Assembly (NCBI GenBank): GCA_000004985.1
Contig: GG738886.1
DNA length: 64,000 nucleotides
Reading direction: 5' to 3' (one strand)
DNA from: Naegleria gruberi
Taxonomy: Eukaryota
This document shows, piece after piece, positions 7,010 through 63,924 of the stretch. Numbering within the stretch: position 1 is the first letter of the stretch; each line of letters starts with the position of its first letter. Both the position numbers and the translations under genes were made by a program. The notes below the pieces were generated by a model, which saw nothing but the letters and a program-made list of their open reading frames with translations, searched no databases and had not been told where the DNA came from.

Positions 7010-7099
7010 GATTCAATTTTTCTTTTTTGCTTCCTGGTATCTTACCCAAACTTTCTTCCAAATGAAAAATTATCATTAACCTTAAAAAAATATCTCTTC

Positions 7100-29539: not shown

Positions 29540-29615
29540 ATATATTGAATTTATTTAACTTTTTTGATTAGTATTTACATGCATAGGGTGGTTCTGAATG
29601 AAATCACATGAATGT

Positions 29616-30562: not shown

Positions 30563-32109
30563 ATGATTTATGCTCGAAAACAATTTCTCAAGGAAACGAA
30601 ACGAAATTCTCTCATTCACCAATCAAGAGCAAGATTTTGTAAAATTCAACACCGAATGGATGTTCACCTCCCTGGTGAAGCAATCGTCATTTTAAATTAT
30701 TATCTCGATTTGGAAAGGAATAGTTTCGGCACTGTATTGGAATCTGTTACTAAAATTCGAAAGTTCTTATCCAGTGAAAGGGATATTATAGGGAGAATAT
30801 CAACAGTTGTTGAATCGAGAGTTTTGGAAAGGATTGTGAATTTGCTTGATGAGGAATATATTGCCAAGTTTTTTACTGTTAAAAGTGAAACGAATCAAAA
30901 CGAAACTTCACATTGTGCTAAAAGAATAATTTCTCAATCAGATTTGATTTCTATTCTGTATGAAACAAGTTGGTTGATTATTAATGTTGTGTCTGGAAAT
31001 TATGACCATACCAATTACATAGTTTCGTGTGGAGTCATTTCTAAACTTGTCAAATTGTTAAAGAAAACTAATTCTAGTTCCATAATTGATCAATGTATTT
31101 GGGCTTTGGGAAATATTGCTGGAGAATCTGTAGAATTTAGAAATTTAGTGTTAGATCACAATATTATGGAAATAATGGTGGAATTGATGCAAAATTATTT
31201 GCTACTGGATTTGAAAGTTTTAAATAGAGGTTGGTTGTAATATTTATTTACCTAACGAATACTAAGAAGAATCTGTATTGTAATGGGTCAGTTGTGTGGT
31301 GCATTTCGAATCTATTGAGTCGTACGCCTTCTCCTTCTCCTGAATATATCCAAGTTGCTGTTGCAGCACTTTTAAAGATATTTCTATCCATGGATGATAA
31401 ACCTTATAACATACGTTATCAAACTTGTTGGTCTCTTTCATATATATCTGAAACAGGACTTGACTCAATAATGGAAAATGAGGAAGCTGTTAGAAAGCTT
31501 ATTGAAATGTGCGCTGTTGAAGTTCCTGATATTAGAAAGTGAGTTTTTCAAAACTAACTGATCATTCTAATAATTTATTATAGACCTGTTGTTACAATTC
31601 TAGGAAATATTGTAGCTTATAGCGAAGAATATAGTAACAAACTACTGAGCAATGGCTTATTGGAAGCACTTATTAAAGGAGGATTGACACTTGAAGCTGT
31701 ATGGATATTGACAAATATTGATAATTGTGAAAAAATGATCAGCACAGGCATAGTTCCTCTTCTTATGGATATCATTAATGTAGATCAGTATTCAACTATT
31801 CAGACAGAGGTATTTTGGGTAATTACAAGGTTGCTACATTACCAAAAAGCAATGGAATTTATTCCCTACATGCTCGACCACAATCTTCTAAAGTGTTTTA
31901 AAAAAGGACTTAATTATTCAAATCGCAACTGGTATCCTTGCTTATCTTGCATAACATTACTAATAGGAACTCATTTGGGTGAAGGTATCTTGGAAGAATT
32001 GAAAAAACTGGAATTGACTGAAAGAATAAGGGCAATTAATGAATCTCCACAGGCAGGAGCAGATGTATATCCATTTTCGGACTTGCTTTTGAAATTATTG
32101 AAAAAATAA
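30563..32109 (+). CDS. divergent importin-alpha-like armadillo-repeat protein, 3 exons
   Basis: Exons 30563..31229, 31292..31538 and 31584..32109. Intron 31230..31291 is 62 nt; intron 31539..31583 is 45 nt with a GTGAGT donor. Total 479 aa. Importin-alpha ARM signatures are present: WALGNIAGESVEFRNLVL, SVVWCISNL (the exon-2 junction), and PVVTILGNIVAYSEEY...AVWILTNI. The N-terminal IBB-like segment is degenerate (ARKQFLKETKRN). The true start may lie upstream; an aaaaaaaATG at 30483 is in another frame. Confidence 0.55.
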
Positions 32110-34269: not shown

Positions 34270-35874
34270 ATGAAGAAGAGCAGCAGCCACAATTTGATAA
34301 CCCTCTCACAACTCGAACAACACGACGGAGTGAAAAATTCACAACTCTGGATACTTCTCTATGGGAAAGTGTACGATATTACTGAATTTGCTGATAAACA
34401 TCCTGGTGGTCGTGAAATGATAGAAACAGCTTGTGCAAGAGATTCTACTGCACTGTTTGAATCGTATCATTTGTCATCCCATTCGATTAGTAGAATATTC
34501 TTGAGAGATGATGGGAATAATAATAATCAGTCGATGATTAAGTATATTGGTGAATTTGATGAAGAAACAAAGCAAGAAGATGTAAATGATTCCAAGATCA
34601 AGTTTAATTTCACAGATTACAAGATTGCAAAGAAACAAGAAAATAGAACGATGAATATTTATGAAATTTTGAAAGAGCAAATAAGAAATGACTTGTTTAT
34701 TCCTGCCCTTACAAGACAAGATTTTAATCTTAACATTAGAAGGGTTTCTCTCTTGAGATTGTTGAATGCAATCTTCATTTTCTCAGGGTTGTTAGCTTGT
34801 CAGCTTTTATCTCAATACTTGACAGGATTACACCTGTCACTTGCCATTATTCTAGCATTCTTGGGAGGTGTATTTCACCACTTGTCCCTTGTCCACGTTG
34901 CTCATGATGCTGGACATGGAAGTTTCACAGATTTCCCAACCTTGTGGAGAATGATTGGACATGGTTGTTCCTATTTGTTGGGACAATCATTCTATCTTTG
35001 GACCATTAGACATAACATTGCTCACCATGTGTAAGTAGCACTTAACTTTAGCAATTAGATTAACATTTATAGATATACGAATATGAGTGAAATCGATCCA
35101 GATATCAGTATTTATGAAAGAGGTAACGTAAATTCACAAGAAAGATCACTACCTGATAAAAAGTATCCTAAATCAGGAGAGAAAACCTCCACCCCAATCA
35201 AGATTATGTCTGTAACTGGTTCAATTGTATTTTTACCAATCATGTATAGTTTAGTTATTGTTTATATGCAACTTAAGGATTTGGCACATTATTGGAGGAG
35301 ACGTGTTAGTGATGGTGTTGGATTTGCATCCCCAACTTGGAGCTTTACAACATTCCATTTCTATGCAAGTAAGATTGTCTTTGTAATGTACCGATTAATC
35401 TTGCCAATGGTCCTCTTTTACTCTACAGATGGTCATTTCGGTAGAAATGCATTAGAATCTGTACTGATATTTAGTGTTACTGAAGTTGTAGCAGGTCTGT
35501 TATTTGGTTTCTTTTCTCAAATCAATCACATCTCTGAGAAGTGTAAATTCAGTCACTTGAAGGAAGGAGCCCTCAACAATAGAGACGAATTGGATTGGGC
35601 AACTATCCAAATCACAACAAGTGTCGACTATTGTCATGACAGTTATTTGTGGACCTATCTATCTGGGTTTTTGAACCACCAAGTTATTCATCACTTATTT
35701 CCAAGTATTAACCCATGGCTATATCCAAAGATTGTTCCAATCGTTAAGAAAGTCTGTAAGGAGAATAACATTGAATATACCATTTACAACAACTTTTGGG
35801 ATGCTATGACTGCTCATGTGAGACAAGTGACCAGTTTTGTGGATACCAAGAAGCTTCTTGCTGAAATAAATTAA
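34270..35874 (+). CDS. cytochrome b5-fused front-end fatty-acid (or sphingolipid) desaturase, 2 exons
   Basis: Exons 34270..35030 and 35073..35874. The 42-nt intron 35031..35072 runs GTAAGT...TATAG, and splicing gives ...HNIAHH-VYTN-MSEIDPD... The N-terminal cytochrome b5 heme motif is HPGG. Three His boxes are present: HDAGH, HNIAHH and QVIHHLFP (the Q-for-H third box is typical of front-end desaturases). Total 520 aa. Confidence 0.75.
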
Positions 35875-37133: not shown

Positions 37134-37892
37134 ATGATAACTGCCGAACAATTTGGTTTATTAGAATCAGGCCCAACTTTCAACTATTGGATCTACGTGC
37201 CAATAGGATTAACTCTCGCTTCAATGCTCATCTCTGTCATGGCTCAATATTTTTCCTATTTTTGGCCAACCATAGAAATCAAACCACAATTCAAGAATAA
37301 GACAACACATTACGTTTTCCTTTCGTATTGTGTGAATCACTCACTTGCTGCAATTTTGACAACTTGTGTTGCTGCCTATACTTACTATTATGGTAGCTGT
37401 TATGAATCGAATATCTTTTCGATGGAACCATTCGAAATGATGTGTTATTTGATGAATGTCATGTGGTGCACCTTGCAACAGGTATTAATTTATGACTTTT
37501 TGATTTATGCTTTCCATAGATCTTGTCATACCAACAAGTGGATGTATATTCACATCCATAAATGGCATCACGAAAATAATACTCCAAATGGGGTATGTGA
37601 TGCTATTTATGGTGATGCATTTGAAGGAACTTTGGTAGCATACTTTGGAGTTGGTCAAATGATGTTCTTCTCCTTGCCAGCTAGCTCTATTTGTTTATTC
37701 TTATTCTTGATTAGTTTCTTTGTGCAATTAAATCATTGTGGACGAAAGGTCAGAATTCCATATGTTTATACTTACAAATTCCATGCTGTTCACCATAGAC
37801 ATTTCAAGTGGAATTTTGCTGAACATTTGCCTGTTTGGGATTTCTTATTTGGTACAATGAAATTGAATGAAATTAGTGATGAACAGTTTTAA
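37134..37892 (+). CDS. fatty acid hydroxylase superfamily enzyme (sterol desaturase / C4-methylsterol oxidase family)
   Basis: Single-exon 252-aa ORF with several hydrophobic segments and the three-box di-iron motif HRSCH ... HKWHH ... HAVHHRH. Confidence 0.7.
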   Translation: MITAEQFGLLESGPTFNYWIYVPIGLTLASMLISVMAQYFSYFWPTIEIKPQFKNKTTHYVFLSYCVNHSLAAILTTCVAAYTYYYGSCYESNIFSMEPFEMMCYLMNVMWCTLQQVLIYDFLIYAFHRSCHTNKWMYIHIHKWHHENNTPNGVCDAIYGDAFEGTLVAYFGVGQMMFFSLPASSICLFLFLISFFVQLNHCGRKVRIPYVYTYKFHAVHHRHFKWNFAEHLPVWDFLFGTMKLNEISDEQF

Positions 37893-43764: not shown

Positions 43765-45090
43765 TTAAGGTAAGAAAGTACCAGTTGCTTTTGTTGTTTG
43801 TGCCTTGATTGATTCCAAGATTGGTGTTAATTTGGCAGCCAATTTAGAAGGTTCCTTTCCATTTGCCTTTTTAGATTCTTCAACCAAAATAACCATATCG
43901 ACAGGAATGGAGATGATTGGTACCATACCTTTAATCATTAAACTGGTCAAACTCATAATACCTGTAGCACCATTTGTCAATCCACCACGACTATCCAATC
44001 CTTGGTGTCTATGACCAATAAGGGCATCAACAAATTGTACAACTCCAATAGTGTTTGAGCCAACAGAAATGGTACGAGTATCAATGTATGGATCAGTAAC
44101 TCTGTACTCGTAAATCTTTTTAATCATATCATTGACATATTGAGTATCCTTTGCCAAGAGTTCTTGAATTGCCTTTGCAGATTTCTTGGCATGTTTCCAT
44201 TCGACAACTGAGGCAACAACACTTGTGGTTGTACCAGCTCCAACACATCCAAGACCAGCTCCTGTAGCCAAAAGCGAACCTCCAAGTGTAAAAGGAGCTG
44301 CTACGATACCTCCCACAATCAATGAAGCACCAACAATGTTTGTGGCAGTACCACCAACTTTGGCCTTTGCTGTTTTCTTTTGTTTCTTATCCAATGCACA
44401 GATCATATCTTCAAGCATTTTAATGATTTCCATACGTTTCTTGAGCCATTCTCTGGCAGATTCTTCAACAGCAACCAATCTCATTGCTTGTATCATGTTG
44501 TTATTAATTGGTGGAGGAACAACAGTGGTTGTTTGTTGCACTACAGAAACAGGTGTCATTGGTGAGACAGTCTTTTCAACAGTTGTGGTTGTTTGTTGTA
44601 CAAATTGACCAGTTGGAGTCATTGGTTGGCCGAATTGAGATTGCATCATTTGAGGTTGTTGTTCCATGTATTGAGGATTCATACTTGGTTGTTGTGGATA
44701 GCCATGTTGCATCATTTGAGGTTGACCATATTGTGGAGGTTGTTGGTACATTCCTTGCTGTTGTGGATAACCTTGTTGGTATTGTTGATATTGTGGTTGT
44801 TGCATACCTGGTTGTTGAGGTTGTTGAGGTTGTTGTTGGTATTGTTGTGGTTGCATACCTTGTTGTTGTGGATAGCCTTGTTGTGATTGCATCATTTGAG
44901 GTTGACCATACTGGGATTGTTGCATACCTTGTTGTTGTGGATACATTCCTTGTTGAGGTTGTTGTGGATAACCTTGTTGAGGAGGGTATTGTTGATATTG
45001 TGGTTGTTGGACTCCAGGTTGACCATATTGTGGAGGTTGTTGCATACCTGGTTGAGGAGTTTGTGGAGAGTATTGTTGTGGTTGGTGCAT
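43765..45090 (-). CDS. ApoL-like membrane-insertion domain protein, paralog 2, with N-terminal prion-like Q/P/G/M/Y-rich repeat domain
   Basis: The first ATG is at 45090 ([10 protein letters not shown]...); the ORF-track start at 45252 is probably UTR. About 180 aa of imperfect PQQGYPQQ(G)MQQ repeats come first. The C-terminal 230 aa are colinear with the 40206..41210 protein ([68 protein letters not shown]...[21 protein letters not shown]...[39 protein letters not shown]). Confidence 0.55.
44560..45090 (-). repeat. imperfect tandem codon repeats encoding PQQGYPQQ(P/G)MQQ prion-like tract
   Basis: Repeated ccttgttg/ggttgttg nucleotide units on the plus strand. They generate several long spurious plus-strand ORFs (44186..45143) composed of V/L/W-rich reverse-frame translations. 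Confidence 0.6.
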
Positions 45091-45564
45091 TTTGTTTTGT
45101 GTTGAAAAATTATATGACTCAAGTCTGTTATTTAGCCTGTTGATTCGTATGAATTCTTTGGTCCGTTGTAACATTCGGAATGTCATTGTCCAATAAAAAT
45201 ACAATGAGAAAGTGACAGAAACAAGTTGCAAAATACAATTGTGGCAATTCAAATATGATTTGTGTGTTAATTGCCAAAAAGTCGAATTATTGTCTTACGA
45301 AAGGAAACATATGCATGTTACTTGGTTGATTTGATCAAGAAAATTGGCAATTCACATCCAAATGTGATTTGATAACTTGTTTGTGCATTCTAAAAGTATT
45401 CTGTTGTATCAACCAAGTTGCTGTTGTAAAGTCTAACTACAGTCAGAGTTGGTTTTAATTGAAGTTTTCCCATAATCCACGTACAGATTTCTTTTTAATT
45501 GCATATGGCACTTCCAAAGCTCCTCTCAATACTTTCAGAATATCAATTCCCATACTAACAAGTT

Positions 45565-46733: not shown

Positions 46734-47763
46734 TTAGTTGTACAAGAGCACACCCAAATCATCAACAACCAACAGCTCACCACTATGAACATTCAAACAA
46801 CAACCAGACAATCCATAAGGTCTACAGGTATGTCTGAGCGAGAAGGAATAATCAAATCTGTGCCTCACGACAAGAGTGTTACTAGCCTTGCAAGAGATGA
46901 TGATAAAGTCTCTATCAATGGTAATGTTCAGCCATATTTTAGAGTTTACCTCCTCCTCAACTGTGAATATCTTGACTAATTCATCATCCCGAATGCACAA
47001 TACTGTGTTGCAGGTTGTGATGAAACATTCACCAACATCATTGAAAGCTAGGGACAGAGGATCTATCAATTTAACAATACCTATTGATGAGAATGTAGAA
47101 ACAAGTGTGCCATCGATTGGATTTAGTTTGACAACTCTATTGTTGCCCGTATCACAAACAAATAATGTAGATTTGTTGTTATTATCATAGTAGTCATCAT
47201 CATCAAATGGAATGCCAAACCCTTCATTGCCAGCAAACTCACATGATGAATTTCCTCGAGGGGATTTACCATGATGGTACATGGCAATACCATTCAGAAA
47301 TTTACCATTAAACCTGCTGGTCCACACGGGTGAGTGATTGGAGGTTGATAATTGTTCCTTGATATTGTACTTTAATACCTTATCATTTCTGGTGGTTACA
47401 TATAAATCATCATCGCCATCAATACACATACGCACAGGGCTGGCAAATACCTTGAGTGTGTCGGTACTCTTTCGAATGAAGGTCAAAGAATTGAATTCTC
47501 TTATTGCCACAATCACAGACGAGAATCAAGTTGTGCCACTGTGAGACTTTTACATCTGATGCAAAGTAAAATCTCTGATTGTCTCCTCCGCTATATTCTG
47601 TGCCAAGCTGACCAATTTGATTGAATTGGTAGGAGTAAGTTGGTTTTTGTTGTGGGCCGAGTTGTTGTTTCAACTTGGAAAGCAGCAGCGAAATTGATGG
47701 AGTTGATTGGACAGCATCATCCGGATGAAATATAAAAAATGTATCTACAAAACTGTTGGACAT
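46734..47763 (-). CDS. NHL-repeat beta-propeller protein with apparent frameshift near 47455..47480
   Basis: ATG at 47763 (aataaaATGtcc; MSNSFVDTFFIFHPDD...). NHL signatures are ILVCDCGNKRIQFFDL (upstream frame) and LFVCDTGNNRVVKLNP, FASPVRMCIDGDDDLYVTTRNDKVLKYN (downstream frame, 47516..46734). The two frames overlap over 47419..47516 with no intron-compatible GT-AG pair, implying a 1-nt indel. Confidence 0.45.
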
Positions 47764-48423
47764 TTTATTAGAATGTTGAAGTAAATGTATGTAATGGAAC
47801 GTACCTAAAGCATCGTGATATTGAATGTTTTTTTTCAAAATTACTTTTTAATTTTTCTTTTATTTTTCAAATTTTAAAGTTTAACGGTAAATATGGGAGG
47901 TGCTGAGATTATTTTTGTTGGTAAAACCAAACAACGTTGCAATTCTCTAAAACCGATTCAATCATCATCTTGCTATACAATCACAAAGAACTCAATTCAA
48001 GGTTTAATTCATCATTAATTAAATTGAAATACCAAATGCAAGTTTTGATAGGACTTCCATTCAATGATTTACTGTTTCGACTTGCTATAGTAATCCTATA
48101 TCCCATTAAGGAATTTGGACCCCTCGTTTATCTCTCTTAATCCCATTCGGAAAGCAATCACCAAAACAACCTGAGAAACTAAGCTTTTGATCCTTAAGGA
48201 AAGCCTCAATTTCAAAAAAATTGGTGTAAGAAGAGACAGGGAGAGAATGCGATTCTTTTTGAAAAATCCAAATACTGGATATTATGATAAGGGGGCATCT
48301 ATATGTTTGTCCTTATCGGCCTTATTAGCAAGGTTGTTATCCTTATCATCATTATCTTTATTTTCAACATCAGGATTAATATCCTTAAAAAGTTGTGGTG
48401 ATGAGGAATTTTCTTCTATTAAG

Positions 48424-51400
48424 ATGCTATCATCATCACCGTCATCATTAACAAGTTTAAATAATTCTAATGGGATAAGAACAAGATCAAAGTATCATTC
48501 TTCATCATCCCTTGTACTTTTATTCATCATTATTTCAATGATACTAGTTTCATGTTTCATGTGTGAACCAATTCAGGCCATCTCTTGTAGTGGAATAGAT
48601 TCCAACGACCTCACTGCTTGCTCTGGGATGGGGACTTGTATTCAGGATGAAACATGCCAATGCCTTAACGGATATTCAGGCGCTAATTGTGAGTATGTGG
48701 AGTGTTTTGGAGTTACAAATGAACCTGGTAATGAGGTTTGCTCTCGTCACGGGCAGTGTTCATCACCAGACAATTGTCAATGCGATTCTGGGTATTATGG
48801 CTCTACATGTTCCATCACAACTTGTTTTGAGAAGTGGAGTAACTTGTCGAATAGCAACAACATTTGCTCTGGGCATGGTACTTGTTCATCATTGGACGTT
48901 TGTGAATGTAATGCTGGATACTTTGGTAGCGAATGTGAAAAGGATCTTTTCGCTGGGTACAAACTAATTAGTATTAGCCCAGTAGTGATAGCAAAAAATT
49001 CACCTGACAATGTTGAATTGAAAGCAAGTATTGCCCTTCCTTCAATGGTTCTATCCTCTGCCTACTCACACGATGGTTCACAACCTTTACCATTTGTTGT
49101 TTCCAACTCTACAACTTCTATTGTTATTACAGATACGGTAAATGATGCTTTTGGTCAATTGTTAGTTCAGGAAGCAGATAGAAAAGCAGGTGAACTTTAC
49201 AATCTTCCATGTGATTTTAACATTTCCAATCCCGACCAAGAACTCAATAGTTTGACCATCATTAGAAATGGTGGAGTCTATTGTTTTCCAAATGGTGTAA
49301 CTATAAGAGGACACACATTTATTATTGTCGGTACAGAAACAGTCCTTTTCAAATCTCCTTTTGTATATTATTATGGAGCTTCCTTTTACTATCTGGAATG
49401 TGCCTCCTATAGGAACGTTTTCTGGTTAACCTATGACCAAGGAGATAATGGAAACTTCTTTTCTGGAGATATTCATGGAACTGTTATTGGAATTTCTCCT
49501 TATCATGGAATTCAACTTTACGATAACTTGGTGGGGGCTGTATGGTACACTGGTGGAACAGATATGATTCTATTCGATGTGAATATTTTACCACCAATAA
49601 CCTTCAATTCAAATGAAAGTTTTAGTCGAGATGATTGCATGGAAACAAGTTGTTATGGAATTTCATTCCGATTGAATAATACTTGCTTTGGAAGAGGTCA
49701 TTGTGTGAAGAATGATACTTGTTTGTGCAATACGGATTCATACGGAAGTAATTGTTTAATTTCAATTTGTAATGGTGTCTACGGAAATGAAACCAATGTA
49801 TGTAGTGGTCATGGTGAATGCCAAAGTAAGGACAGTTGTGAGTGCGAAAGTGGTTATTATGGAAATTGGTGTGAATTGACCACATGTTTTGGAGTCCAGA
49901 ATGACCAGCCGAATACTTGTAATGGGCATGGATTGTGTTCCAAATTGGATACTTGTGAATGTGCTTCTGGTTTTGGATATGGTGGTTCAAGTTGTGAAAT
50001 TCCAATCTGTAATGGAACTATGGCTAATGAAAGTAGTGTTTGTCTATCAAGAGGTCATTGTGTCCAACCAAATATGTGTAGTTGCCAATCAAGTTATTCA
50101 GGGTCAAACTGTGAAATTGCTAATTGTTTTGGAATTATTTCAAATGACAGCTCAGTTTGTTCTGGTCATGGGTCTTGTAATTCTGTAGATACTTGCACTT
50201 GTTCCATTGAATACTACGGAGCCGATTGCTCACAATTTGATTGTTATGGCATTCAATCAGTGAATAGTTCTGTTTGTTATGGAAGAGGACAATGTATTAA
50301 TGTTAATACTTGTTCATGTTCACAAGGATACTATGGCAATGAATGTGAAATCTCCATGTGTGATGGTATTTTGGGCAATTCCTCCCAAGTTTGTTCTAGT
50401 TATGGACAATGCAAGGATACGGATGTGTGTGATTGCCAATTGGGCTATTTTGGTGTGTTTTGTAATGAAACAACATGTAATAGTATAGCAATGAATGACT
50501 CAACAGTATGTAATGGACAGGGAACTTGTTGGCCATTGGACACATGTGTTTGCTCCAATGGATATGATGGCTCTAATTGTCAAAATCCTATTTGCTTTGG
50601 AATTGTTTCCACTAATACCTCTGTTTGTGGAGGTCATGGAGTTTGTTCGCAACCAAATATTTGTCAATGCAACCAGGGATATTACGGATCCCAATGTGAA
50701 ATAGTCACCTGTTCTGGTATCATGTCAAATGGATCAACAGTGTGTTCAGGACAAGGGCAGTGTTCTGATATGGACATATGCCAATGCAACAACCATTACT
50801 ATGGATCTAATTGTGAAAAGTTTGATTGCTTTGGTGTATCCTCTCTCTTAAACACCTCATGCTCTGGTCATGGTACATGTCTTGATTACAATACTTGCCA
50901 ATGTTACTCTGATTATTATGGAAATAATTGTGATGTTACCAAATGTTATGGTATTTTCAGTAATTCATCCAATGTTTGTTCATCTAAGGGAAGTTGCCAT
51001 GTACGAGATACTTGTATCTGTTCGAATAATTACCACGGTTCTTATTGTAACATAACAAGTTGTAATGGAGTTTATTCTAATGATGCTTCAGTTTGTTCCG
51101 GTCATGGTTCATGTATTGGGTACGACACTTGTCAATGTTTGAGCGATTATTCTGGAAGTAATTGTCAAGGAGAAATAGTTGACCCATTTGCTGGATTTAG
51201 AATTATTTCAGATTCTTCAGTTTCAATTTCTATTGATTATTTCCTGACAGATTGGCAACCAGTTTTGCAATCCTATACTCGTTACTATGCCTCAAGTTTA
51301 CTTCTTAAAAGTATTTCCTATTTGGATTCAAATATTCAATATCTTCCACATTCGAGTGCAGTTATTCTAAACAGCACAAGTGCACAGGGCATCAATATTG

Positions 51401-54400
51401 TCAACAAGATGAAAACCATCAAGTCCCAGTTATTGGCTTCATTAACCTGCACTAAAACTTACACAAACACTAACTCTCCAAATACTTTTATAATCAAACA
51501 TGGAGGTGTAATTTGTTTCACAGGAGGAATGACATTCGGGCCAGAAAGAACTATTATCATTGTGGGAACAGAGCCTGTCATATTCAAACTCCCATCCTTG
51601 CAGTATAGTGCTCTTAATATTGTTTTTTTGGAATGTGCCTCATATAGAAACTTTTTCTGGATTTTGGATTCAAATAGTTTTATTAAGGGAGCAGATAAAA
51701 CAAAGAATTATCAACCACCAATTCATGGAACATTTATTCAACTCTCTGGAACTATTTCTTTGAGAGGTTACCTTGCAGGTAGTGTATGTGCTTCGAACAT
51801 CAATACTCTTCTCCACGAAGTCACATTTTATGATCCAACCACTTTTGACCCTTTCCAAAGTGTCACTTCACAATGTAATTACACCCTCTGTTACAACATT
51901 CTATCAAATAATCAATCAGTGTGTTCAGGTAAAGGTAATTGTTCTGATTACAACACTTGTGTTTGTAATACGGATAGTTATGGATCTGATTGTTCTTTAT
52001 TTAAGTGTAACGGAATTTTGAGTTCAAACTCAACTTTTGTTTGTAATGGAAGAGGTAAATGTGTAGGGCCAGATGTCTGTTCCTGTAATCCAGGTTATTA
52101 TGGAGATTTTTGTGAGCTGACCACATGTAATGGAATTGAAAATACCTCGCCTCTTGTTTGTAATGGAAGAGGTGCCTGTAATCATTTCAATAGCTGTTCC
52201 TGTAGCTCTACATTTGGGTATGGTGGATCAGATTGCGATATTCCAATTTGCTATCAAAAACTTGCAACCAATCGTTTAGTTTGTAGCTCAAGAGGTGATT
52301 GCTTGGGACCAAATGTTTGTAATTGTACCGAAACTTATCTTGGTGATAATTGTCAACTGACCACTTGTGCTGATATACTTTCAAACTCTTCTCTTGTTTG
52401 TTCAGGCTTTGGATCATGTGTTGGCTATAACAATTGCACCTGTCATACAGGTTTCTATGGAGAAACTTGTGCAGAATATGATTGTTTCGGAGTTAATAAG
52501 AATAATCCAAATGTTTGCTCTTCAAAAGGCGAATGTATTACTGTTAATAACTGCACATGTCAAGATGGCTTTTTGGGTAATAATTGTTCCTACACTACTT
52601 GCTTTGGAGTAAGAAGTGATTCGCCTACAGTTTGTAATTCGAAAGGTTCCTGTAGAGCCAAAGATGTTTGTGAATGTTGGAATGGATATTTCGGAAGTAA
52701 TTGTACTCTGACAAGTTGTGGAGGGATCTATTCAAATGATAGCTCTGTGTGTAATGGACATGGTTCTTGTTGGCCAGCGGAAACCTGCACTTGTTTATCT
52801 CAATATGGATATACAGGTCAATTGTGTGAAATTCCAATTTGTTATACCATAGCAGCTAGTGATCCTTTAACCTGTTCTTCTCATGGCTCCTGTGTTGGTG
52901 TCAATACATGTGAGTGCCAAGCAAATTATACTGGATCCAAGTGTCAAGTTACATCATGTCAAGGAATTCTATCAAACGGCTCACTTGTTTGTTCTGGGCA
53001 TGGTTCATGTATTGAACATGATAATTGTACATGCCTAGCTGGTTACTTTGATACCGCCTGTAATCAATTCACATGTAATGGAACCAACTCCCAAGACAGC
53101 TCAGTTTGCTCTGGAAAAGGAAGTTGCGATTCATATAATAATTGTTCTTGTCAAGCGGGCTATTATGGACCTAATTGTGAAAAGACAATGTGTAATAACA
53201 TTTTGAGTGATAATCCATCTGTGTGTACATCTCGTGGTAATTGTATTGCCCCAGAAGTTTGCAGTTGTAATGAGACTTATTTTGGTACTAATTGTGAGTT
53301 GACTACTTGCAATGGAACTGTTTCAAATAGCAGCTCGGTATGTTCAGGATCAGGAGTTTGTTGGCCATTCGATACCTGCACTTGTTACTCTGACTTGGTC
53401 AGAGAATTCGAAGGTCAATGGTGTGAAAAACGTTTGTGGGATCCTTTCGCTGGATATCGAATGGTATCTCACAATGGTTTAGTTTACCATTTTGATGATA
53501 ACAACAATTTCTACACTCCTGATATTCATACCAATACTAGATATTATCGTTCAAGTATGATTTTAGATATACTTACAAAGATAACACCTACACTCAATTA
53601 CACATCTGATAATGGAGCTCACATTGATAGTGTTAATACTCCCAAAGCATCAGCCTTGGCTGCACTTATGAAAAAGAAAGGTAATTCCATGTGGACACTT
53701 CCATGTACTAAAACAGTTAACAATTCAAGTGATTTGCCATGGATTAGTAAGAGTGAAATTATGATTCGTCACGGAGGTGTTTTCTGTTTCAATATTGAAG
53801 CTTCTTTTCACAACAATATAACCATTATCATAGTTGGAGCTGAACCTGTTGTTATGAAAGTTCCTTCAATTCAATACTCTGCAGTCAACTTTGTATTTGC
53901 AGAATGTGCTTCTTATAGAAATTTGTTTTGGTTTATCACAAGTTATAATCCAAGTTTCATTCAAGGAGGAAATAGAGGGACTGGATATGAGCCTCCAATT
54001 TATGGAACTTTCTTCCCAACCTCAGGTGGTTCCTTCCAACTTGCTGGTCCTTTTGCAGGAAGTGTTTGGGTAACCGGTAATGCATGGACTGTTTTTATTG
54101 ATGTTACTGTTTATCCACCATTGTCAACTGATCCATATGAACCAACAGTTGGTCAATTTTGTAATTATACTCAATGTTTCAATGTTAAATCTAATTTGAA
54201 TACTACATGTTCCGGTAGAGGTCAGTGCATTGATTATAATACATGTGTTTGCAATGCCGATGCTTATGGAGTTGATTGTTCAATCTCCAAGTGTAATGGC
54301 ACATTTAGTAATGTATCAACTGTTTGTAATGGACATGGTTCATGTATCGCTAAAGATACTTGCCAATGTAATACAGGATACTATGGAGAATGGTGTCAAT

Positions 54401-57400
54401 ATACAACATGTGGAGGAATTGAAAGCACTTCACCATTGACTTGTAGAGAAAGAGGTACTTGTATTGCCTATAATCAATGTTCTTGTAATGTCACCAAAGG
54501 ATACAATGGTAATGACTGTGAAATTCCTTATTGTAACAACATTTTGGGAAACACTTCAACTGTTTGCAGTGCTCATGGTTCTTGTGAATTGCCAAACACG
54601 TGCAATTGTTCAGCAAACTATTTTGGAACATTTTGCCAATATACCACTTGTGCAGGCATTGAAACATATAATTCATCAGTTTGTATTGGTAGAGGTCAAT
54701 GTACACTTTACAATAATTGTACTTGTAACTCACCTTATTATGGATCCAATTGTGAACAATTCAAGTGTTTTGGAGTGAATAACAACTCTAGTACTGTTTG
54801 TTCTGGAAGAGGTATCTGTACAGATTATAACACCTGTGTTTGTAATGCTGGATATTTAGGATCGAATTGTGAAATTTCATCCTGTTTTGGAATTTTAAGT
54901 AATGTGTCCCTTGTTTGTAAAGCTCATGGAGTTTGTGTAGCTACGAATACTTGTGTCTGTGCTGCTAATTACATGTCCAGTGATTGTTCTGTGACTTCCT
55001 GTTCAGGAATCAATTCAACTTGGTCTTCAGTATGTCATGGAAGAGGTTCATGTTGGCCTTACAATACATGTAATTGTAATGCCAAATTGGGTTACACTGG
55101 AAATGATTGTAATGAGCCAATGTGTGACGGTCTTACAAACTCTGATCCTTATGTTTGTAGCGGAAGAGGAGGTACTTGTGTTTCTCCTAATCTATGTGTC
55201 TGTAACGATCCATCAAAATATTTTGGTAAATTGTGTGAATACACCTATTGTCGAGGTGTTCCAACCAATCTTACTGACACAGCACTCTTCTGTTCTGGAA
55301 ATGGTATTTGTACAGACTATAATTACTGTTATTGTTTTAGTGGATATACAGGAACTGAGTGTGAGTTGGATATGTTTGCAGGTTACAGATTCGTCACCAA
55401 TAAGAATGTTTATGTTTTGAAGAATCAGATTTATTACTTGCCTGCCAATATCGCCATAGGCCCAATGTTGAGTGCTGCTGGGCAGAAGACATACCTTCCT
55501 TACCAACAAGCAGTGAAAACCAATTTGAGAGTTGATGCTACATTGTTGAATGAGCTCCAAATGAGAGCTATGGGTTTAAGGTATAATTTCTTCCCTTGTG
55601 AACATTATATCAAGGACGCTTCAGTATTTGGAAAGAACATAGAATTGAGGGGAGGTGTGTACTGCATTCAGAATCCATGGACAATTGATGGACATAACTT
55701 TACCGTAATTGGTAAAAAACGAACCATTTTTACACTTCCACAGCTGATATATAAATCAGCAAAGTTCACCTACTATGAATGTGCATCTTATAGAGATGTA
55801 ATATTTTATGCCGGTGAAACTACTGGCTACAGCAATTTCACAGGACCTATCGATGCAACCATTTTTGTAAATTCACCAGGTGCAGCAGATTACTACGTGA
55901 ACGGTGATATTAATGGAGCAATCTATATATTTGGAAAACTTGGATCTAACGATGCTCCACCTACTGGTACTGTCTACACTACAGATATGAAATTTATTGC
56001 ACCATACACATTTGATCCAGCTGTTAGATACATTGAATCCAAGTGTAATTATTTCACATGTTTTGGAATTGGCTCTAATATCAATACTACTTGTTCTGGA
56101 AAAGGAAAATGCATAGGCATTGATACTTGCTCATGTATTTCTGGGGCGTATGGGCCTGATTGTTCTCTCAGAATGTGTAATGGAACTTTAGGAAACTTTT
56201 CCAATGTTTGCAGTGGTCATGGTTCATGTATTTCCACTGATATTTGTCAATGTAATGCAGGATTTTATGGGCAATGGTGCCAATACACAAAGTGTTATGG
56301 ATTAGAAAATACTTCTCCAACTGTTTGTTCAGGAAGAGGTTCTTGCTTGTCTGAAAATAATTGTATTTGTAATTCTACTTATGGATACGAAGGTTCACAA
56401 TGTGAAACTCCAATTTGTGGTGGACAATTGGGTATTTGTGCTAGTTCAAGCAGAGGAAATTGTACAGCTCCTGACACTTGCTCATGTTTGGATCATTATA
56501 GTGGTCAATTTTGCCAATGGACTACTTGTAATAGCGTACCTTCTAATTCATCAAGTGTTTGTTCTGGAAGAGGAATATGTGCTGCATATAATACTTGTCA
56601 ATGTAAAGCAGGATATATTGGATCGATCTGTGAAAAGGATGTCTTTGCTGGATACAAATTAATTAGTAACAAGGCAGTTCTTTTAGCAAAGAATTCAAGA
56701 GCTAGCTCTGTGCTGGCAGCAAGTATTGCCCTTCCTTCAATGACAATTAGACCACCAACATTTTTAAATCCAGATAAGGTCTATCCATATGTTGCAAGTG
56801 GTAAGTCTGTAATTACAAAGCCAACCGATTCCTACTATCAAACTTTAATGACCGAATTATCAAAGAAATTCGATGAGCTCATGTCCGCTCCTTGTGACTA
56901 TGTAATTTCAAAACCAGATACTGAAATGGGTCAGAAAATTCTCATTGAGCATGGTGGCGTCTATTGTTTCCAGAATGGTTGGAACATTAATGGTCAAAAG
57001 TTTACAATTGTTGGAACTGAGCCAGTTATTTTCAAAGCTCCATATATCAAGTATTCTGGAGCTAACTTTGTATATTTGAAGTGTGCTTCATATAGAAACG
57101 TGTTTTGGGTCACTCAATACTACAACTTGACTGGCAGAGTAAATTGGGTTAACAGTAATTCATTTTCTGGAACAGTTCATGGCACAATAGTTGCTAGATA
57201 TGGGTATGATTATTTAGTTTCCGATGATATACAAGGAGCTATTTGGTTTTATACTCAAGAAGATGGATATATCACTTTGAAAGATGCTAAACTTACAACA
57301 CCTCCAACATTTGATCCTTACATGCCATATGTTACTGGATCTTGTGATACTTATACTTGTTTTGGTATTGATCCAACTTCGAATATGAGTTGCTCAGGTA

Positions 57401-60400
57401 GAGGTGTCTGTAAAGATTACAATACATGTACATGTCAAGATGATTCCTATGGTATTGATTGTTCCATTTCTAAATGTTATGGAATTTTTGGAAATGTGTC
57501 AATTGTTTGTTCCTCTCATGGTAATTGTACATCAAAGGATACATGTACATGTAGTGAAGGATACTTTGGAGACTTGTGTCAATACACTTCATGTGCTGGC
57601 ATTCCAAATAACTCTACAAATGTCTGTAACCAGAGAGGTGTTTGTAATATTTACAATTCTTGCACTTGTAACACAACTTTGGGTTATGATGGATCGAATT
57701 GTCATGTTCCAATATGTAATCATCTAGTAGGAACATGTACAGATCTATTCAGAGGTAACTGTACTGCTCCTAATGCATGTTCATGTGAAAATCATTATTA
57801 TGGGCCTTGGTGTGAAAAGACAACTTGTGGTGGATTTGAGTCAACTAATACACAATCTGTTTGTAATGGAAGGGGTAATTGTACAGCTTATGAAAAGTGT
57901 ACCTGTTTACATGGATATGCAGGAGCATTTTGTGAAGAGTATAGTTGTTTTGGAGTTGTGAGAACTCTTCCGTCAACTTGCTCTGGAAGAGGAGCTTGTT
58001 CTTCAATTGACCAATGTGATTGTAGCGCAAATTATTATGGATCTAATTGTGAAATTAGCAAGTGTAATGGTAAATTTGGAAATGAGTCTACAGTGTGTAG
58101 TTCTAATGGTCAGTGTATTGAGACAAATATTTGTAATTGTTCAGAGCATTATTATGGAAATTGGTGCGAAAAGACGACTTGTTTTGGAGTTGCTTCCAAT
58201 GAGTCAAATGTTTGTTCACATAGAGGACAATGTAAAGCATTCAATACTTGCCAATGCAATCAAAATTACTTTGGAGATAATTGCGAGTTGACTACTTGTA
58301 ATAATCTTGCTTCAAACTCTGGTTTGGCTTGCAATTTGGTTGGCAATTGTACAGATTACAATACATGTGTTTGTCCTTATGGATATACTGGTTCATGGTG
58401 TGAACAGACTACTTGCTTTGGTGTAGCCACAAGTTCTCCAAGTGTTTGTAATGGACATGGTAATTGTACAACTATGGATATGTGTAGTTGTGATCCTAAA
58501 TATGGTTATGGTGGAAGTAATTGTAACATTACAACATGTGATGGAGAATTGTCTACCTCTTCTCAGGTCTGTAACTCACATGGTACATGTATTGGACCAA
58601 ATCAATGTCAATGTGCTCCACATTATATTGGTGACAATTGTCAAGTGACAACTTGTTTTGGAATTCTGTACAATGACTCTAGTGTTTGCTCAGGAAAGGG
58701 TTCTTGTGATGGATTCGATAACTGTACATGTGAACTTGGTTATTCTGGAGCAGAATGCGACCAGTACACATGCAGTGGAGTTTTCAATTCAAATCCCTTA
58801 GTTTGTTTCGGTAGAGGAAACTGTACTGAATATGATATCTGTGTTTGTGAAGCAAATGCCTTTGATTTTGATTGTTCTGGTGTTTCTTGTAATGGATTTA
58901 TCAATGCAGATCCAATGGCTTGTTCTTCACATGGTTCATGTACCCAAAATCAATAGTGTAATTGCTCTGAAAATTATCATGGTGAATGGTGTGAGCTCAC
59001 AACTTGTAATGGAATTGATTCGAATAGTACTGAAGCATGTTCTGGAAGAGGAAGATGTGTAGATTATAATAGTTGTGTCTGTTCGAATGGATACTATGGG
59101 GATGACTGTCAGGATTACAATTGTTATGGTATTTCACATTTTTCAAATTTGACATGTTCCGGATATGGTAATTGTTCCGATATCGACACATGTGAATGTT
59201 TTGAAGATTCTATTGGTTTAGATTGTTCCGTCAACGTTTGCAATGGTCTTCCTATGAATTCCTCATTAGTTTGTTCAGGACTAGGCAGTTGCACTCGACC
59301 AAATTATTGCAATTGTTCAGATAACTATTTTGGAAGTAATTGTGAATGGACCACATGTTATTCCATCGCATCATTCTCTCCATCCACATGTTCTGGAAGA
59401 GGAAATTGCTCTGATTTTGATAAGTGTATATGTAATTCTGATACATTTGGTTCCGATTGCTCTCTCTTCAAATGCAACCACACCCTTGGCAATGAAACTC
59501 AAGTTTGTAGTGGACGAGGTTCATGTATTGGCACTGATGAGTGCAATTGCACTGAGAATTATCACGGAGAGTTTTGTGAATTTACTGAATGTTTCTCTCA
59601 ACTTTCTAATGAAAGTTCAGTTTGCTCTGGAAAAGGAAAATGCATTGAGTTCAATAATTGTTCATGCCAAGATGGATATTTCGATCAAGATTGTTCTCAA
59701 TTCCAATGTAATGATACCTTCAGCAATGAAACCACAGTTTGCTCCTCAAGAGGTTTTTGCATTGATTCGAACAAGTGCAATTGCTCAGAAAATTACTTTG
59801 GACTGAATTGTGAATTGAGCATTTGCTTTACAATTCTTTCTAATGACAGCAGAGTTTGTTCTAGAAGAGGAATTTGTGTTGATTATCAAAACTGCTCATG
59901 TTATGATGGATTTTATGGTGAAAGTTGTGAGTTTGCTGTAAGTGCAGTGAACAATCAATCAAATTCCACTCAATTGAATAATCAAACTATTGATTCCAGT
60001 AATGTAACCATGAATAATAATTCATCGGTGGTTTTTAACAATACTGATAACAGTACAAATACTGATAATAGTAGTGTTGTGGTCACTAATCACACAATTT
60101 CAGAAGACAATACAACACGTTCTAATTCAAATGGAACTGTTTATAATAACAATAGTACAGACCTTTCTAATGAAACAATTTCAAATAATGGAACAGTTTC
60201 TGCTAACGCAAATGTTACTATCCCTGACAATTCTACTTCTTCCACTAATCAAACTGTTTCTCCAAGTACTGATTCATCAAATGGAACTGTTTCCAATAAT
60301 ACTGTAAATGCAACAGCTTCTGATAATACTACCACTGATAATTCCAACATTACAATTTCGGATAATACCACTTCACCTGGATCCAATAATCAAACTATTT

Positions 60401-63400
60401 CTCCAAGTGTTGATTCATCAAATGGAACGATTTCAAATAACACTAATCCTTCGGTAGTTTCGAACAGCTCAACTGTTTCAAACTCTTCTTTTACTAACGG
60501 AACAGTTTCCAACAGCACAGTCACTTCAAATAGTAGCACAATTACTTATAATACCACAATTTCATCAAACGAAACAATTTCGGTTAATGTAACAAGCAAC
60601 ACATCAAAAATTACAAATTCAACCTCAATCTTGAACGAAACTGTTCCTGTAATGCCTGAGCCTGATGTTGTGGTTGCTTTGCCGGTTGCAATTATAAAAC
60701 GAATGAGCTCGAACGTGTTCAGCTCATGCGATGATATTAGAGTGGATGGCTCGCAAAGTTTCTCACAAGATTCGACCTATCTTGACTATTATTGGAATTT
60801 ATTGGAAGCAAGCTCTTTGACTAGTTTACAAAGTTTGCCTAATAGTCCAATCATTGTCATTGACTCTACATTGAAGCCAGGACAATATGTTGTTTCACTA
60901 AAAGTTGGAAATGGAAGAAATAGTTCAGTGAACTATTCGAAACCTTTCACCAAGTCAGCAAATCCACTTCCAAAGATTTATATTGCTAATTCTTTGATTG
61001 AAAAGTATGGAAATCAATTCCCAGTAACCATCAAGAAAGTTATCACAGAATCAACTTGCCAAAAGGAAAAATCAGTAATTAGTTGGAGTCAATTAAGTGG
61101 ACCAACAGTTAAATACTCAATTGACAGTTTCAGTAATCTTGCTATTGCCTCATTGACTACCTATGGTTTCCATACTTACATCTTCCAAGTTTCAGCTCAT
61201 TACCCTTCAAATCCATTAGAAAGAGTTTCTGCCAATGTAACACTTGTTACAAAATCTCCTGAATTGCAACTTGAATTATTGACAACTGATGCAAATTCTA
61301 ATTACACAACTATTGTAATTGGATACACAGATCCAGAGAGTGCTTATAATACTCTTTCTGAGGAATGGAAATGGACTTGTTTGAATAATACGAATCCAAG
61401 TTTAATTTCCTTCTTGGAATTGATTTCTAAAAACAAGCAAACTGAAGTTAGATTTGATGGTTCATCACTATTTCGTCAAAACATACCTCGCTCTATTGAA
61501 CTATCTTTAAGAATTTCCAAGTCTGATAGAACAATCTCCAAGTCAATTATAGTTTACTTTGGATTGGTTCCACCTATTGTAAATATTATTTCAGTAGAAC
61601 CAAGCACTTTGTACGTTCTTCCTGGAGAACCTCTCAGTATTCAGACATTAGTCACCAAAGGAAATGTTAATGTTACATTGAATGGACAAGTTGTTGAAGT
61701 ATCCGATCAACAGCCAACCTTGGATGTTGACACTAAACTATTAGAACAAGGTTCTGAAAATACAATTACAATCACATCGACTGATCCAGTGACTGGAATG
61801 TCTAGCTCTTCAAGCTATACTTTCAAAGTTGCTACCTATCCGAAACCATGTGCTTGTTTCATTTCTCCTTTAAGTGGAATTGCATTAGAAAGCGATTTTG
61901 AATTCTATTGTACGAATTGTAAAAATTCAGAAAATAATATTGACTATCGATATGGATTTATAGATGACAGATCCGAAACAAGAATTCTATTATTCGATTC
62001 TGGTGAAATTTATGCTTCCAAGTTGCCATCTCCATTTTCTGGAAATACTGTCAAATGTTTCTTTGATATTGTCGATACAGAGACAGGTGCTTTTACAACA
62101 GTTTACAAAAATGTCACTATAGAAAAACCTCTCGTTACAAAAGTCGAACAAGTTCAAGGACTAGTCGAATCATGGACTATTGTGGGATCCAACTATTTCA
62201 GTAATGGAGATTTCAGTAAGAGTATTTATCAATGTGCTTCAACTTCAAGAACTGATTCAGTTTTATTGAGACAGATATTAGGAAATGAATATTTAGAAAG
62301 ATCAGAAAGTATTGAATGTGAGAATGGTGTTGATATTTCAGGAGTGTGTAAATGTCATGATGGATATATTGGTAAACATTGTGATAAGGCGATTAGTGAC
62401 TTTTCTAATATTCAAGGTACTAAATTGCAAGTACTCAGAGAAATGGTGACCATTGCCAATAGCACTGGTGAAATGAATAATCAATATTTGTCATTGCTGT
62501 CATTTGCCATTGATTCGATACTTGTCAATTATCAATATTTAGATACAAATACTATATCTGAATCAATGTATACTTTGAATATGTTTTTGGAATATTCCTT
62601 ATCTGATGAAAGTTTGAGATTACCAACCGGGGTTGATAAGTTATTAGAATCTAGTCAATATTCAACATTTAATTACATTACTGATAAGCAATACCTTACT
62701 GATCAAACGTCAAATGCCTTAAAATTATTGAAATCTCTCAAATTGTCATCTCAGTTACAAGCAAGATCTGTTTCCATGTCAAATGCCAAGAGAAACATTA
62801 AGGGATCATTCTTTAGTATAGTTTTGGGTAAGAGCTTGTTAGCTGATCATCAAAATAATATTCAAGATCCCCATTCATCTTCGTCCATAAGTATGGAGAA
62901 TGGTTTCTTTGCTTATACTGCAAGATCTAAAGTTTCATCTATCAAAAAGCCATATATTTACATCCTGTCTGTGACTGATGACATTTACTCATTGGGAACT
63001 AAACTCAAAGTTGTGGAAAAGAATAACAATGTTCAAAAGGTTTCAAATTTGGTTTCTCCAATAGTTTCTGTAGATTTTGTGGATGTTGCCACTACCATGA
63101 ATCCAACAAAAATAATTTATTCGATTCCAATTAATTTGAATGGATCAACATTTGAATTGAGAAGAGGAACTTTTGATTTATCAGTCAAGACACTGGACCA
63201 GTATTGTAAAAACTTTGATGAAGGTTCTATTAAAGTTCTTTCAGACTGTACCTTAATTTCATTGACTGCAACACATGCCAAATGTCAATGCTCCAAATTT
63301 ACAAATGTATTTGTTATTGAAACAACGACCATTTCAACTTATTCCTACACCTACTTGGCAGCTATTGGTTTCTCTCTTGTAGCTGTCTGTTCCATTGGAA

Positions 63401-63924
63401 CCTTGGTAATTCTCTCAGTTTGCGTATGGTGGAAATTCAAGAAACCTAAACTTTCCAAAAAGAGAAGTCTTGTCTTTACGGATGCCTCTGAAAATGAGAT
63501 TCAACTCAGAATTCAAGAAATTATTCTCGGAGACCATACATACAGTAATTCAGAAACTAACTCTGATGATTCATTGATTATTGATGTGATAGATGATTGT
63601 CCATCAGGAGGAAGCAGTGGAACAGGTTCAAATAATGGAAGAATGAGAAGTTATTCAATGCAAGAAAGACCAACCACAATGATGAGTTCATCCTCTCCAA
63701 GAGGTGGAGTTGGTGCCAATATACTTTCATCTTCACCAAGAGGAACAAGAAATCGTTCATCTTCAGTTGCTCCATTGATTATTCAGGAAAGCCATGAATT
63801 GGATTCGAATGCATCAAGTTCTGATGAATTATTAAAGAATCATTCAGAGGGAGGTGTTAAACGATCTGGAAGTGGTATTTGGGATTTGAGAGAAGATGGC
63901 TTTCTAGAACATGAAAAATTTTAA
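48424..63924 (+). CDS. giant type I membrane protein: signal peptide, ~150 tenascin-type EGF repeats, five ice-binding-like (DUF3494-like) modules, N-glycan-rich stalk, GPS-like motif, single TM; one in-frame TAG at 58954..58956
   Basis: ORFs 48187..58956 and 59149..63924 are in the same frame (59149-48187 is divisible by 3). The 64 codons between them are open and continue the EGF pattern (CNCSENYHGEWCELTTCNG...). The first ATG, at 48424, precedes a hydrophobic signal-like segment (LVLLFIIISMILVSCFMC). The EGF units follow C.G.G.C.....C.C..GY.G..C. The TM helix YLAAIGFSLVAVCSIGTLVILSVCVWW lies at ~63352..63435 and is followed by a basic/S-rich tail. Confidence 0.6.
48940..49640 (+). repeat. 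ice-binding-like (DUF3494-like) module 1 of 5 within the giant gene
   Basis: KDLFAGYKLISISPVVIAKNS...GGVYCFPNGVTIRGHTFIIVGTETVLFKSP...YLECASYRNVFWLTYDQGDNGNFFSGDIHGTVIGIS... This is colinear with fungal/bacterial IBP beta-helix motifs (FAVLAgs; GvYk.....tGtltLdgqgdpnavFIFq; aqAkNVFWqvG; F.GtIla.T.it). Confidence 0.45.
51169..51880 (+). repeat. ice-binding-like module 2
   Basis: DPFAGFRIIS...HGGVICFTGGMTFGPERTIIIVGTEPVIFKLPSLQYSALNIVFLECASYRNFFWIL...IHGTFIQLSGTISLRGYLAGSV. Confidence 0.45.
53425..54160 (+). repeat. ice-binding-like module 3
   Basis: DPFAGYRMVS...HGGVFCFNIEASFHNNITIIIVGAEPVVMKVPSIQYSAVNFVFAECASYRNLFWFIT...IYGTFFPTSGGSFQLAGPFAGSVWVTG. Confidence 0.45.
55362..56040 (+). repeat. 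ice-binding-like module 4 (most diverged)
   Basis: DMFAGYRFVT...RGGVYCIQNPWTIDGHNFTVIGKKRTIFTLPQLIYKSAKFTYYECASYRDVIFYAG...IDATIFVNSPGAADYYVNGDINGAIYIFG. Confidence 0.4.
56633..57345 (+). repeat. ice-binding-like module 5 (closest to module 1)
   Basis: DVFAGYKLISNKAVLLAKNS...HGGVYCFQNGWNINGQKFTIVGTEPVIFKAPYIKYSGANFVYLKCASYRNVFWVTQ...VHGTIVARYGYDYLVSDDIQGAIWFYT. Confidence 0.45.
59935..60650 (+). repeat. S/T/N-rich stalk with ~45 N-x-S/T sequons and internal ~35-aa repeats (mucin-like, heavily N-glycosylated)
   Basis: NQSNSTQLNNQTIDSSNVTMNNNSS...STNQTVSPSTDSSNGTVSNNTVNATASDNTTTDNSNITISDNTTSPGSNNQTISPSVDSSNGTISNNTNP... This sits between the last EGF array and the membrane-proximal domain. Confidence 0.5.

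Follow-up and report, generated by a model that had tools for sequence, protein, structure and literature searches.

Contig GG738886.1 of Naegleria gruberi carries, in the 64,000-nt stretch analysed here (the window, to whose positions all coordinates refer), a 15.7-kb reading frame for a giant adhesion-type receptor that is interrupted by a single in-frame TAG. The locus raises the question of whether this stop codon separates two genes, is spliced out, is read through, or marks a mutation or an error in the assembly. We show that the open reading frames (ORFs) on its two sides are one gene, publicly annotated as NAEGRDRAFT_51207, whose public model steps over the stop by means of an intron that is very probably an artefact. 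The stop itself may well be a real and very recent nonsense allele.

One reading frame and one gene

Between a TGA at 48172 and a TAA at 63922, frame 0 of the + strand stays open (48175 to 63921) except for the TAG at 58954-58956, its sole stop, as the initial annotation had described. The resulting ORFs, 48187..58956 and 59149..63924, share this frame and are, according to the ORF listing, the two largest of the window, again as first described. The start of the gene is uncertain, with in-frame ATGs at 48247, 48424, 48538, 48559 and 48628; a signal peptide is encoded from ATG 48424 (or 48247), and codons and residues are counted here from 48424 (Table 1).

The sequence around the stop, ...TCA TGT ACC CAA AAT CAA TAG TGT AAT TGC..., translates as CSSHGSC-TQNQ*-CNC, which places the TAG at the position of an ordinary residue of an EGF unit, just as the initial annotation had proposed. 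Across the 64 EGF units captured by a strict regular expression, this position is occupied by varied residues (T in 26 units, N in 10, V in 6, I in 5, S in 4, Q and K in 3 each, M and Y in 2 each, and L and E in one each). Codons one step away from TAG occur at the equivalent position of other units, namely AAG, GAG, TAC and TAT, among them three (TAC, AAG and GAG) that had been named in advance as such neighbours. The Cys-to-Cys spacing of [10,5,5,1,8,4] repeats exactly through the TAG and the next 64 codons, so that the claim that the stretch between the two ORFs continues the repeat pattern is borne out. In the 4965 nt downstream of the TAG, the two other frames contain 84 and 191 stops, and no second pair of open stretches (at least 100 codons) split by a lone TAG was found in the window. 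The TAG-split frame is real and not a product of chance.

The two ORFs are one giant receptor gene, a claim of the initial annotation that is supported by the topology of the product, by a paralogue and by a public model that extends across both ORFs. The 5166-amino-acid (aa) product contains only two hydrophobic segments, the signal peptide (aa 30-47) and a transmembrane (TM) helix (aa 4975-5003), and is predicted to be a type I membrane receptor. The 1810-aa N. gruberi paralogue P0001 combines in one chain a signal peptide, EGF, a solenoid module, an EGF array, a linker, a REJ domain, a TM helix and a tail; it is colinear with aa 4087-5000 of the giant receptor (37% identity, E 9e-177), whose five super-repeats are each matched by the N-terminal part of P0001. 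Two ORFs do appear in the mechanical listing, as would be expected if a secreted EGF/solenoid protein ended at the TAG and an independent REJ/TM protein started near 59149-59254. We set this arrangement aside as exceedingly unlikely, because P0001 and the other paralogues, like the public model, are single chains; because there is no spacer, the 64 intervening codons being canonical EGF sequence in the same frame; because no signal sequence accompanies the first Met beyond the TAG (59254), even though it is followed by about 1365 aa of Cys-rich, N-glycosylation-rich ectodomain; and because neither of the polyadenylation signals AATAAA and ATTAAA occurs within 58900-59400.

The public gene model and its intron

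The public protein of this locus, XP_002674088.1 (EFC41344.1, UniProt D2VPE3; P0070 in our numbering), is a 4968-aa "predicted protein" from a 358,576-bp scaffold, which we recovered by an exhaustive HMMER search with the REJ-to-TM part of the receptor and which word-indexed searches missed. Two blocks of it, 48628-58566 (3313 aa) and 58957-63921 (1655 aa), match the window translation with 100% identity, and exactly 390 nt (130 codons including the TAG) are absent between them. The public model thus already joins both ORFs as one gene, stepping over the TAG by a predicted intron of the form GTCTGT...CAATAG. Its start, Met 48628, is Met 69 of the conceptual product and lies within the first EGF unit, so that the signal peptide is not included.

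Our standard for introns was a set of six from the window (Table 1) that, when spliced out, leave long open frames joined or a domain whole again. All six are 42-52 nt long, with a donor of the form GT[AG]NGT (a purine at +3, G at +5 and T at +6), a YAG acceptor and a GC content of 0.22-0.37. Two of them are in frame and stop-bearing, each splitting same-frame ORFs; together they produce the three same-frame ORFs of a gene with a C-terminal VPS9 domain (3095-6829, + strand), the first (GTAGGT..TTCAG) carrying a TGA and the second (GTATGT..CCCAG) a TAA. A lone in-frame stop in this genome is usually such a mini-intron, and because stop-split same-frame ORFs normally have this cause here, an intron test at the TAG is essential. 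No intron of the local class was found over the TAG: the shortest in-frame, stop-free GT..AG spans across it measure 72, 75 and 96 nt, and none has a consensus donor. The earlier statement that no GT..AG intron of local size can remove the stop holds, with the qualification that longer in-frame spans exist, one of which, at 390 nt, the public model uses.

That the TAG is spliced out, either with this 390-nt span or by a cryptic 117-nt intron, leaving an uninterrupted mature mRNA, is unlikely. Besides the public model, this explanation can draw on the donor GTCTGT, which fits the GTNNGT shape of the local donors, and on the tiny stop-carrying in-frame introns that split same-frame ORFs in the VPS9-domain gene. 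However, the span is 7-9 times longer than the real introns, has a C at donor position +3 where all six of these have a purine, and consists of 129 open codons with canonical Cys spacing. Its GC content of 0.38 is exon-like (0.368 for the gene upstream of the TAG). Coding and intergenic DNA of this window cannot be told apart by GC content. Excision would leave a C-DGELSTSSQ-C-N-C unit that has lost Cys2 and Cys3, with a spacing of [..4,9,1,8,4..], and the apparent donor is simply a Val-Cys codon pair, GTNNGT occurring 82 times by chance in this Cys-rich gene. The annotated intron is very probably an artefact, and the public model looks like an uncurated prediction, since it has dropped the signal peptide too. 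A cryptic 117-nt intron could be either of two in-frame GT..AG spans, 58956-59072 or 58934-59050, whose excision would take out exactly one period of the repeat and keep the EGF unit perfect. Their donors, GTGTAA and GTTCAT, however, lack the invariant G at +5 and T at +6, and a similar number of such pairs is expected by chance.

Origin of the stop codon

The initial annotation had left three explanations for the stop side by side, an error, a nonsense allele and a read-through site; of these, read-through finds no support in the sequence context or in predicted folding, while the choice between nonsense allele and error becomes a matter of weighting. The reading that we favour, with about half of the probability on its side, is a real and very recent nonsense allele. 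One base substitution would have turned a sense codon of the EGF unit into TAG; given AT-biased mutation and the residues observed at this position, the original codon would most likely have been CAG (Gln), with AAG (Lys) or GAG (Glu) next. The allele would be either one haplotype of a heterozygous diploid or a variant that became fixed while strain NEG-M was kept in axenic medium for decades. The transcript would encode a secreted 3510-aa fragment without the REJ domain, TM helix and tail, or would undergo nonsense-mediated decay. We infer both this fate of the transcript and the status of the TAG as a true allele rather than a consensus error. The only published N. gruberi genome is that of NEG-M (PMC9928731), which has been grown axenically for decades (PMC6205838). 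The strain is probably heterozygous, and a giant adhesion receptor may be dispensable in axenic culture.

Any real lesion must be very young, below about 1% neutral divergence, because none of the 1655 codons that follow the TAG is a stop. Of the 14,895 possible substitutions in this part of the gene, 803 create a stop, so that the probability of seeing no new stop downstream falls from 0.069 at 1% neutral divergence to 0.005 at 2%. An old or decayed pseudogene, in which several stops or frameshifts and a loss of coding periodicity would be expected, is thereby excluded, a single lesion being followed here by 1655 open codons.

Searches for a second copy of the region brought none to light. 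A word-indexed protein search with the TAG and 300 aa on each side returned nothing above 47% identity, and word-indexed searches overall gave only matches of about 40% identity from Naegleria and Willaertia; since this type of search also missed the 100%-identical P0070, these negatives carry little weight. Scans of JGI metagenome contigs, by DNA pattern and anchored on protein, found no other copy of the TAG region, and looking up the exact products of the two ORFs and P0070 yielded no further copy. A different part of the window does have a close environmental counterpart: an ENA metagenome contig (ERZ929261 / ERR1078381, project PRJEB11402; locus L001) matches 27524-29663 with an identity of 97.3% at the DNA level and 99% at the protein level. 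Of the 522 codons of the P450 gene included in this part (27743-29311), 14 differ synonymously and 4 non-synonymously. Because of this 97.3% identity, the sample contained a close relative of the sequenced N. gruberi strain, and any real lesion in the receptor gene is younger than the split from that relative. We found no paper mentioning project PRJEB11402. A word-indexed protein search with the P450 of the window found no identical public model, and its assignment as CYP51 was rejected.

The chief alternative to a nonsense allele is a consensus or base-call error in the draft assembly, which would hide a true sense codon (e.g. CAG, AAG, GAG or TAC) and leave the full 5166-aa receptor to be made; we regard this as a tentative second choice, plausible enough to be kept in mind. 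An error would account for exactly one lesion in an otherwise perfect 15.5-kb frame with all 1655 downstream codons open, at a position that tolerates many residues, one-step neighbours of TAG among them, and in a reference assembly that we take to be a Sanger draft of 2010. Against it, no frameshift and no further unexplained stop occurs in the approximately 15,700 ORF codons of the window (about 10,500 of them outside this gene), where introns alone break other ORF pairs, so the local error rate looks low, and only 5.6% of random substitutions make a stop. Repeat collapse or mis-assembly is unlikely too, since the internal repeats of the gene are too divergent (at most about 75% identical over at least 100 nt). 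The nonsense allele is favoured over the error because of this low local error rate, the small share of substitutions that make stops, the axenic culture and the size of the 15.5-kb target, a weighting that rests on rough priors rather than on measurement. Several observations weigh against the nonsense allele. One lesion only is also what a consensus error would look like, and the two are not separable from the sequence alone; the 117-nt excisions that keep a perfect EGF pattern would permit cryptic, frame-rescuing splicing; and TAG ends none of the 23 other ORFs of at least 200 aa (TAA 19, TGA 4), which leaves a small opening for unusual handling of TAG. This last is a small oddity that, with so few ORFs and a genome of 34% GC, says little.

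Such unusual handling could take the form of programmed UAG read-through or recoding, in which a secreted 3510-aa fragment would be accompanied by an occasional membrane-anchored 5166-aa receptor. We consider this very unlikely. The downstream frame is intact, no other large ORF of the window ends in TAG, and the codon before the stop is CAA, which precedes some leaky stops. Yet the 3' context is UAG-UGU-AAU, which has neither the UAG-CARYYA form nor a C at +4, and the downstream 136 nt, with a minimum free energy of -22.6 kcal/mol, are no more stably folded than shuffled sequences (mean -23.75, z = +0.33), so that neither a leaky 3' context nor a stable stimulatory structure is present. The seven tRNA genes of the window include no suppressor, and the TAG lies in the midst of a disulphide-bonded EGF unit, at an arbitrary variable residue rather than at the boundary of a domain. 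A reassignment of UAG was rejected as well: there is one TAG in about 15,700 ORF codons, no other TAG-split ORF pair and no tRNA(CUA) among the seven tRNA genes, and our literature search turned up no deviant nuclear code in Heterolobosea. It is highly improbable that the TAG is genuine, homozygous and functional, with low-level read-through or regulated 117-nt splicing producing shed and anchored forms; if it were so, one Naegleria gene would make both a secreted 3510-aa EGF/ice-binding-like adhesive protein and an anchored REJ/GPS receptor and could switch between the two. The biology of the stop is most likely mundane.

Architecture, relatives and neighbouring genes

The ectodomain of the predicted receptor is dominated by EGF units, of which a regular expression defines 66, each with six Cys, in arrays of 3, 13, 13, 10, 5 and 22. 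Pfam profiles match significantly on both sides of the TAG (before it, EGF_2 with E 2.9e-150, EGF_TEN with 3.5e-147 and EGF_Teneurin with 6.7e-107; after it, EGF_2 with E 1.7e-21 and EGF_TEN with 3.5e-29, EGF_Teneurin likewise being found on both sides), and together with the six Cys and their fixed spacing these matches identify the units as EGF arrays. Between the arrays lie five solenoid modules of about 235 aa with the pattern FAGY...GGVYCF...ECASYRNVFW. An AlphaFold2 model of the fifth (pLDDT 71.5, pTM 0.76) is a right-handed beta-solenoid with a flanking alpha-helix. A Pfam scan of the solenoid modules gave no match at E <= 0.01; PF11999 was matched by one of six aligned module copies (E 1.4e-6), the other five lying below Pfam detection. 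Fold and profile match point to the DUF3494 family, without implying an ice-binding role. The linker after the last EGF array contains a 63-nt direct repeat (60241-60303 and 60382-60444) that, at 87% identity, is the most similar internal DNA repeat of the gene.

Table 1. Features of the receptor gene and reference introns, in window coordinates
Feature	Position	Strand	Remarks
Conceptual single coding sequence of the receptor (locus NAEGRDRAFT_51207)	48424..63924	+	5166 codons including TAG, then TAA
Hydrophobic core of N-terminal signal peptide or anchor (LVLLFIIISMILVSCFMC, aa 30-47)	48511..48564	+	Hydrophobicity; absent from public model
Ice-binding-like (DUF3494 fold) beta-solenoid module 1 (FAGY...ECASYRNVFW)	48937..49653	+	Repeat alignment; fold shown for module 5
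Ice-binding-like module 2	51169..51888	+	Repeat alignment
Ice-binding-like module 3	53428..54177	+	Repeat alignment
Ice-binding-like module 4	55357..56058	+	Repeat alignment
Ice-binding-like module 5	56626..57357	+	AlphaFold2 model
Annotated 390-nt "intron" (GTCTGT...CAATAG)	58567..58956	+	Judged coding: 129 open codons of canonical EGF units, ends in TAG
Stop-bearing EGF unit (CSSHGSCTQNQ*CNCSENYHGEWC)	58921..59007	+	Roughly the 58th of about 66 regex-defined units
In-frame TAG	58954..58956	+	Codon 3511 from ATG 48424; variable residue before Cys4
64 codons between the mechanical ORFs	58957..59148	+	Coding continuation of EGF array
Asn/Ser/Thr-rich linker	59932..60666	+	Many N-x-S/T sites, short internal direct repeats; after last EGF array
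REJ domain	60508..62220	+	Pfam PF02010, E 9.2e-14, 51.3 bits (cut-off 25), profile positions 28-445 of 452
Post-REJ EGF unit and ~300-aa region conserved in N. gruberi paralogues	62317..63246	+	Helices then strands predicted
GPS-like motif CTLISLTATHAKCQCSKF-TNVFVIETTT	63247..63330	+	Directly before membrane
Single TM helix	63346..63432	+	Hydrophobic segment, aa 4975-5003
Ser-rich cytoplasmic tail and terminal TAA	63433..63924	+	Reading frame
Intron	4265-4315	+	51 nt, donor GTAGGT
Intron	4662-4709	+	48 nt, donor GTATGT
Intron	31539-31583	+	45 nt, donor GTGAGT
Intron	35031-35072	+	42 nt, donor GTAAGT
Intron	18664-18715	-	52 nt, donor GTAAGT
Intron	47389-47431	-	43 nt, donor GTATGT

The conserved region that follows the REJ domain may be a GAIN-like domain; its structure model is poor (pLDDT 38.7), the alignment being shallow. 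The juxtamembrane motif found best agreement, in a search of the PDB with a seven-paralogue profile, with the GPS motif of ADGRL3 (latrophilin-3), at a marginal E of 0.031-0.043, and the Pfam GPS profile gives it an E of only 5.8, with the triad SKF-T instead of HL-T. Because of that E value, the marginal profile match and the poor model, we call the motif only GPS-like. In the form C..(11)..CxCxxLTNVF(V/I)(I/M)ET it is kept in P0071-P0075 and P0001, all single-pass proteins, and it closely resembles the GPS cleavage site and the start of the tethered agonist of adhesion G-protein-coupled receptors. With its EGF arrays, REJ domain, GPS-like motif and single TM helix, the product fits the label of an adhesion-type receptor under which it had first been described.

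The giant receptor is the largest member of a family of N. gruberi REJ paralogues (P0001, P0071-P0076, P0080, P0082, P0089 and P0094; 1174-4502 aa) that share the REJ domain, a conserved region of about 350 aa, the CxC..LTNVF motif and a single TM helix. The ectodomains vary within the family, and the closest six members are 39-48% identical to the giant receptor over the REJ-to-TM part; at least P0001, P0072 and P0074 carry FAGY/solenoid modules and EGF arrays like those of the giant receptor, which stands out by its five solenoid modules and some 66 EGF units. Of all the models read, this one alone was shown to require an artificial intron for its frame to stay open, the other paralogues having been compared as proteins.

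Beyond Naegleria, the closest described architecture is presumably that of the group of single-pass sea-urchin REJ1 and polycystin-1, in which a big adhesive ectodomain is likewise followed by REJ and then by a GPS-type motif at the membrane (suREJ1, PKD1/PKDREJ). The giant receptor differs from the suREJ1/PKD1 family in having no C-type lectin, PKD or LRR module, and from PKD1-type proteins in having no PLAT or PKD_channel Pfam match and no 11-TM region; in its one TM helix it resembles suREJ1, which has EGF modules and a single TM helix. Its EGF arrays are like those of teneurins and tenascins (EGF_2, EGF_TEN, EGF_Teneurin) in their six-Cys units of fixed spacing, but the array is far longer and interrupted by solenoids, and the other domains of those proteins are absent. 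Compared with the DUF3494/ice-binding family (PDB 5uyt, 7bwx, 3wp9 and 6bg8; PF11999), the fold here occurs in five internal, EGF-flanked copies within a eukaryotic membrane receptor. Our literature search found nothing on this locus, nor on Naegleria together with DUF3494 or REJ.

Elsewhere in the window, seven tRNA genes lie at 1110, 6938, 12284, 33720, 35913, 40073 (- strand) and 43259; their identities are Gly-TCC, Glu-CTC, Glu-TTC, Thr-AGT (two copies), Trp-CCA and Asp-GTC. The mechanical start of ORF 6944-9232 falls within a tRNA-Glu gene (6938-7009). A gene for a cytochrome-b5/fatty-acid desaturase fusion (34270-35874, + strand), with a tRNA-Thr(AGT) copy on either side, is split by a 42-nt in-frame intron, and a gene of the fatty-acid hydroxylase family (37134-37892) lies just downstream of this fusion. 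Unusually for an amoeboflagellate, ORF 43765-45252 (- strand) encodes an apolipoprotein-L-like domain (Pfam PF05461, E 1.1e-9).

The main value of these results is the correction of an annotation, which will hold little surprise for specialists. Locus NAEGRDRAFT_51207 is this gene, with 4968 aa in the public model and 5166 aa in the conceptual product proposed here; what we add is the identity of the locus, the stop hidden by an implausible intron, the missing signal peptide and the domain anatomy. The public entry is probably wrong twice, in that the signal peptide is missing and that 130 residues of the EGF array are missing owing to an intron with which a gene predictor bypassed a stop codon. 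Users of the reference proteome who study surface proteins, adhesion or the evolution of REJ proteins and polycystins inherit both errors. The general trap is that giant repetitive genes are large targets for nonsense mutations and that predictors disguise the hits as introns.

For the protein family, the architecture of the receptor, with five solenoids within about 66 EGF units, a REJ domain, a GPS-like motif and one TM helix, indicates the depth of the REJ/GPS juxtamembrane cassette in eukaryotes. For the organism, a real NEG-M allele would mean that a surface receptor has been lost from a strain with decades of axenic culture behind it.

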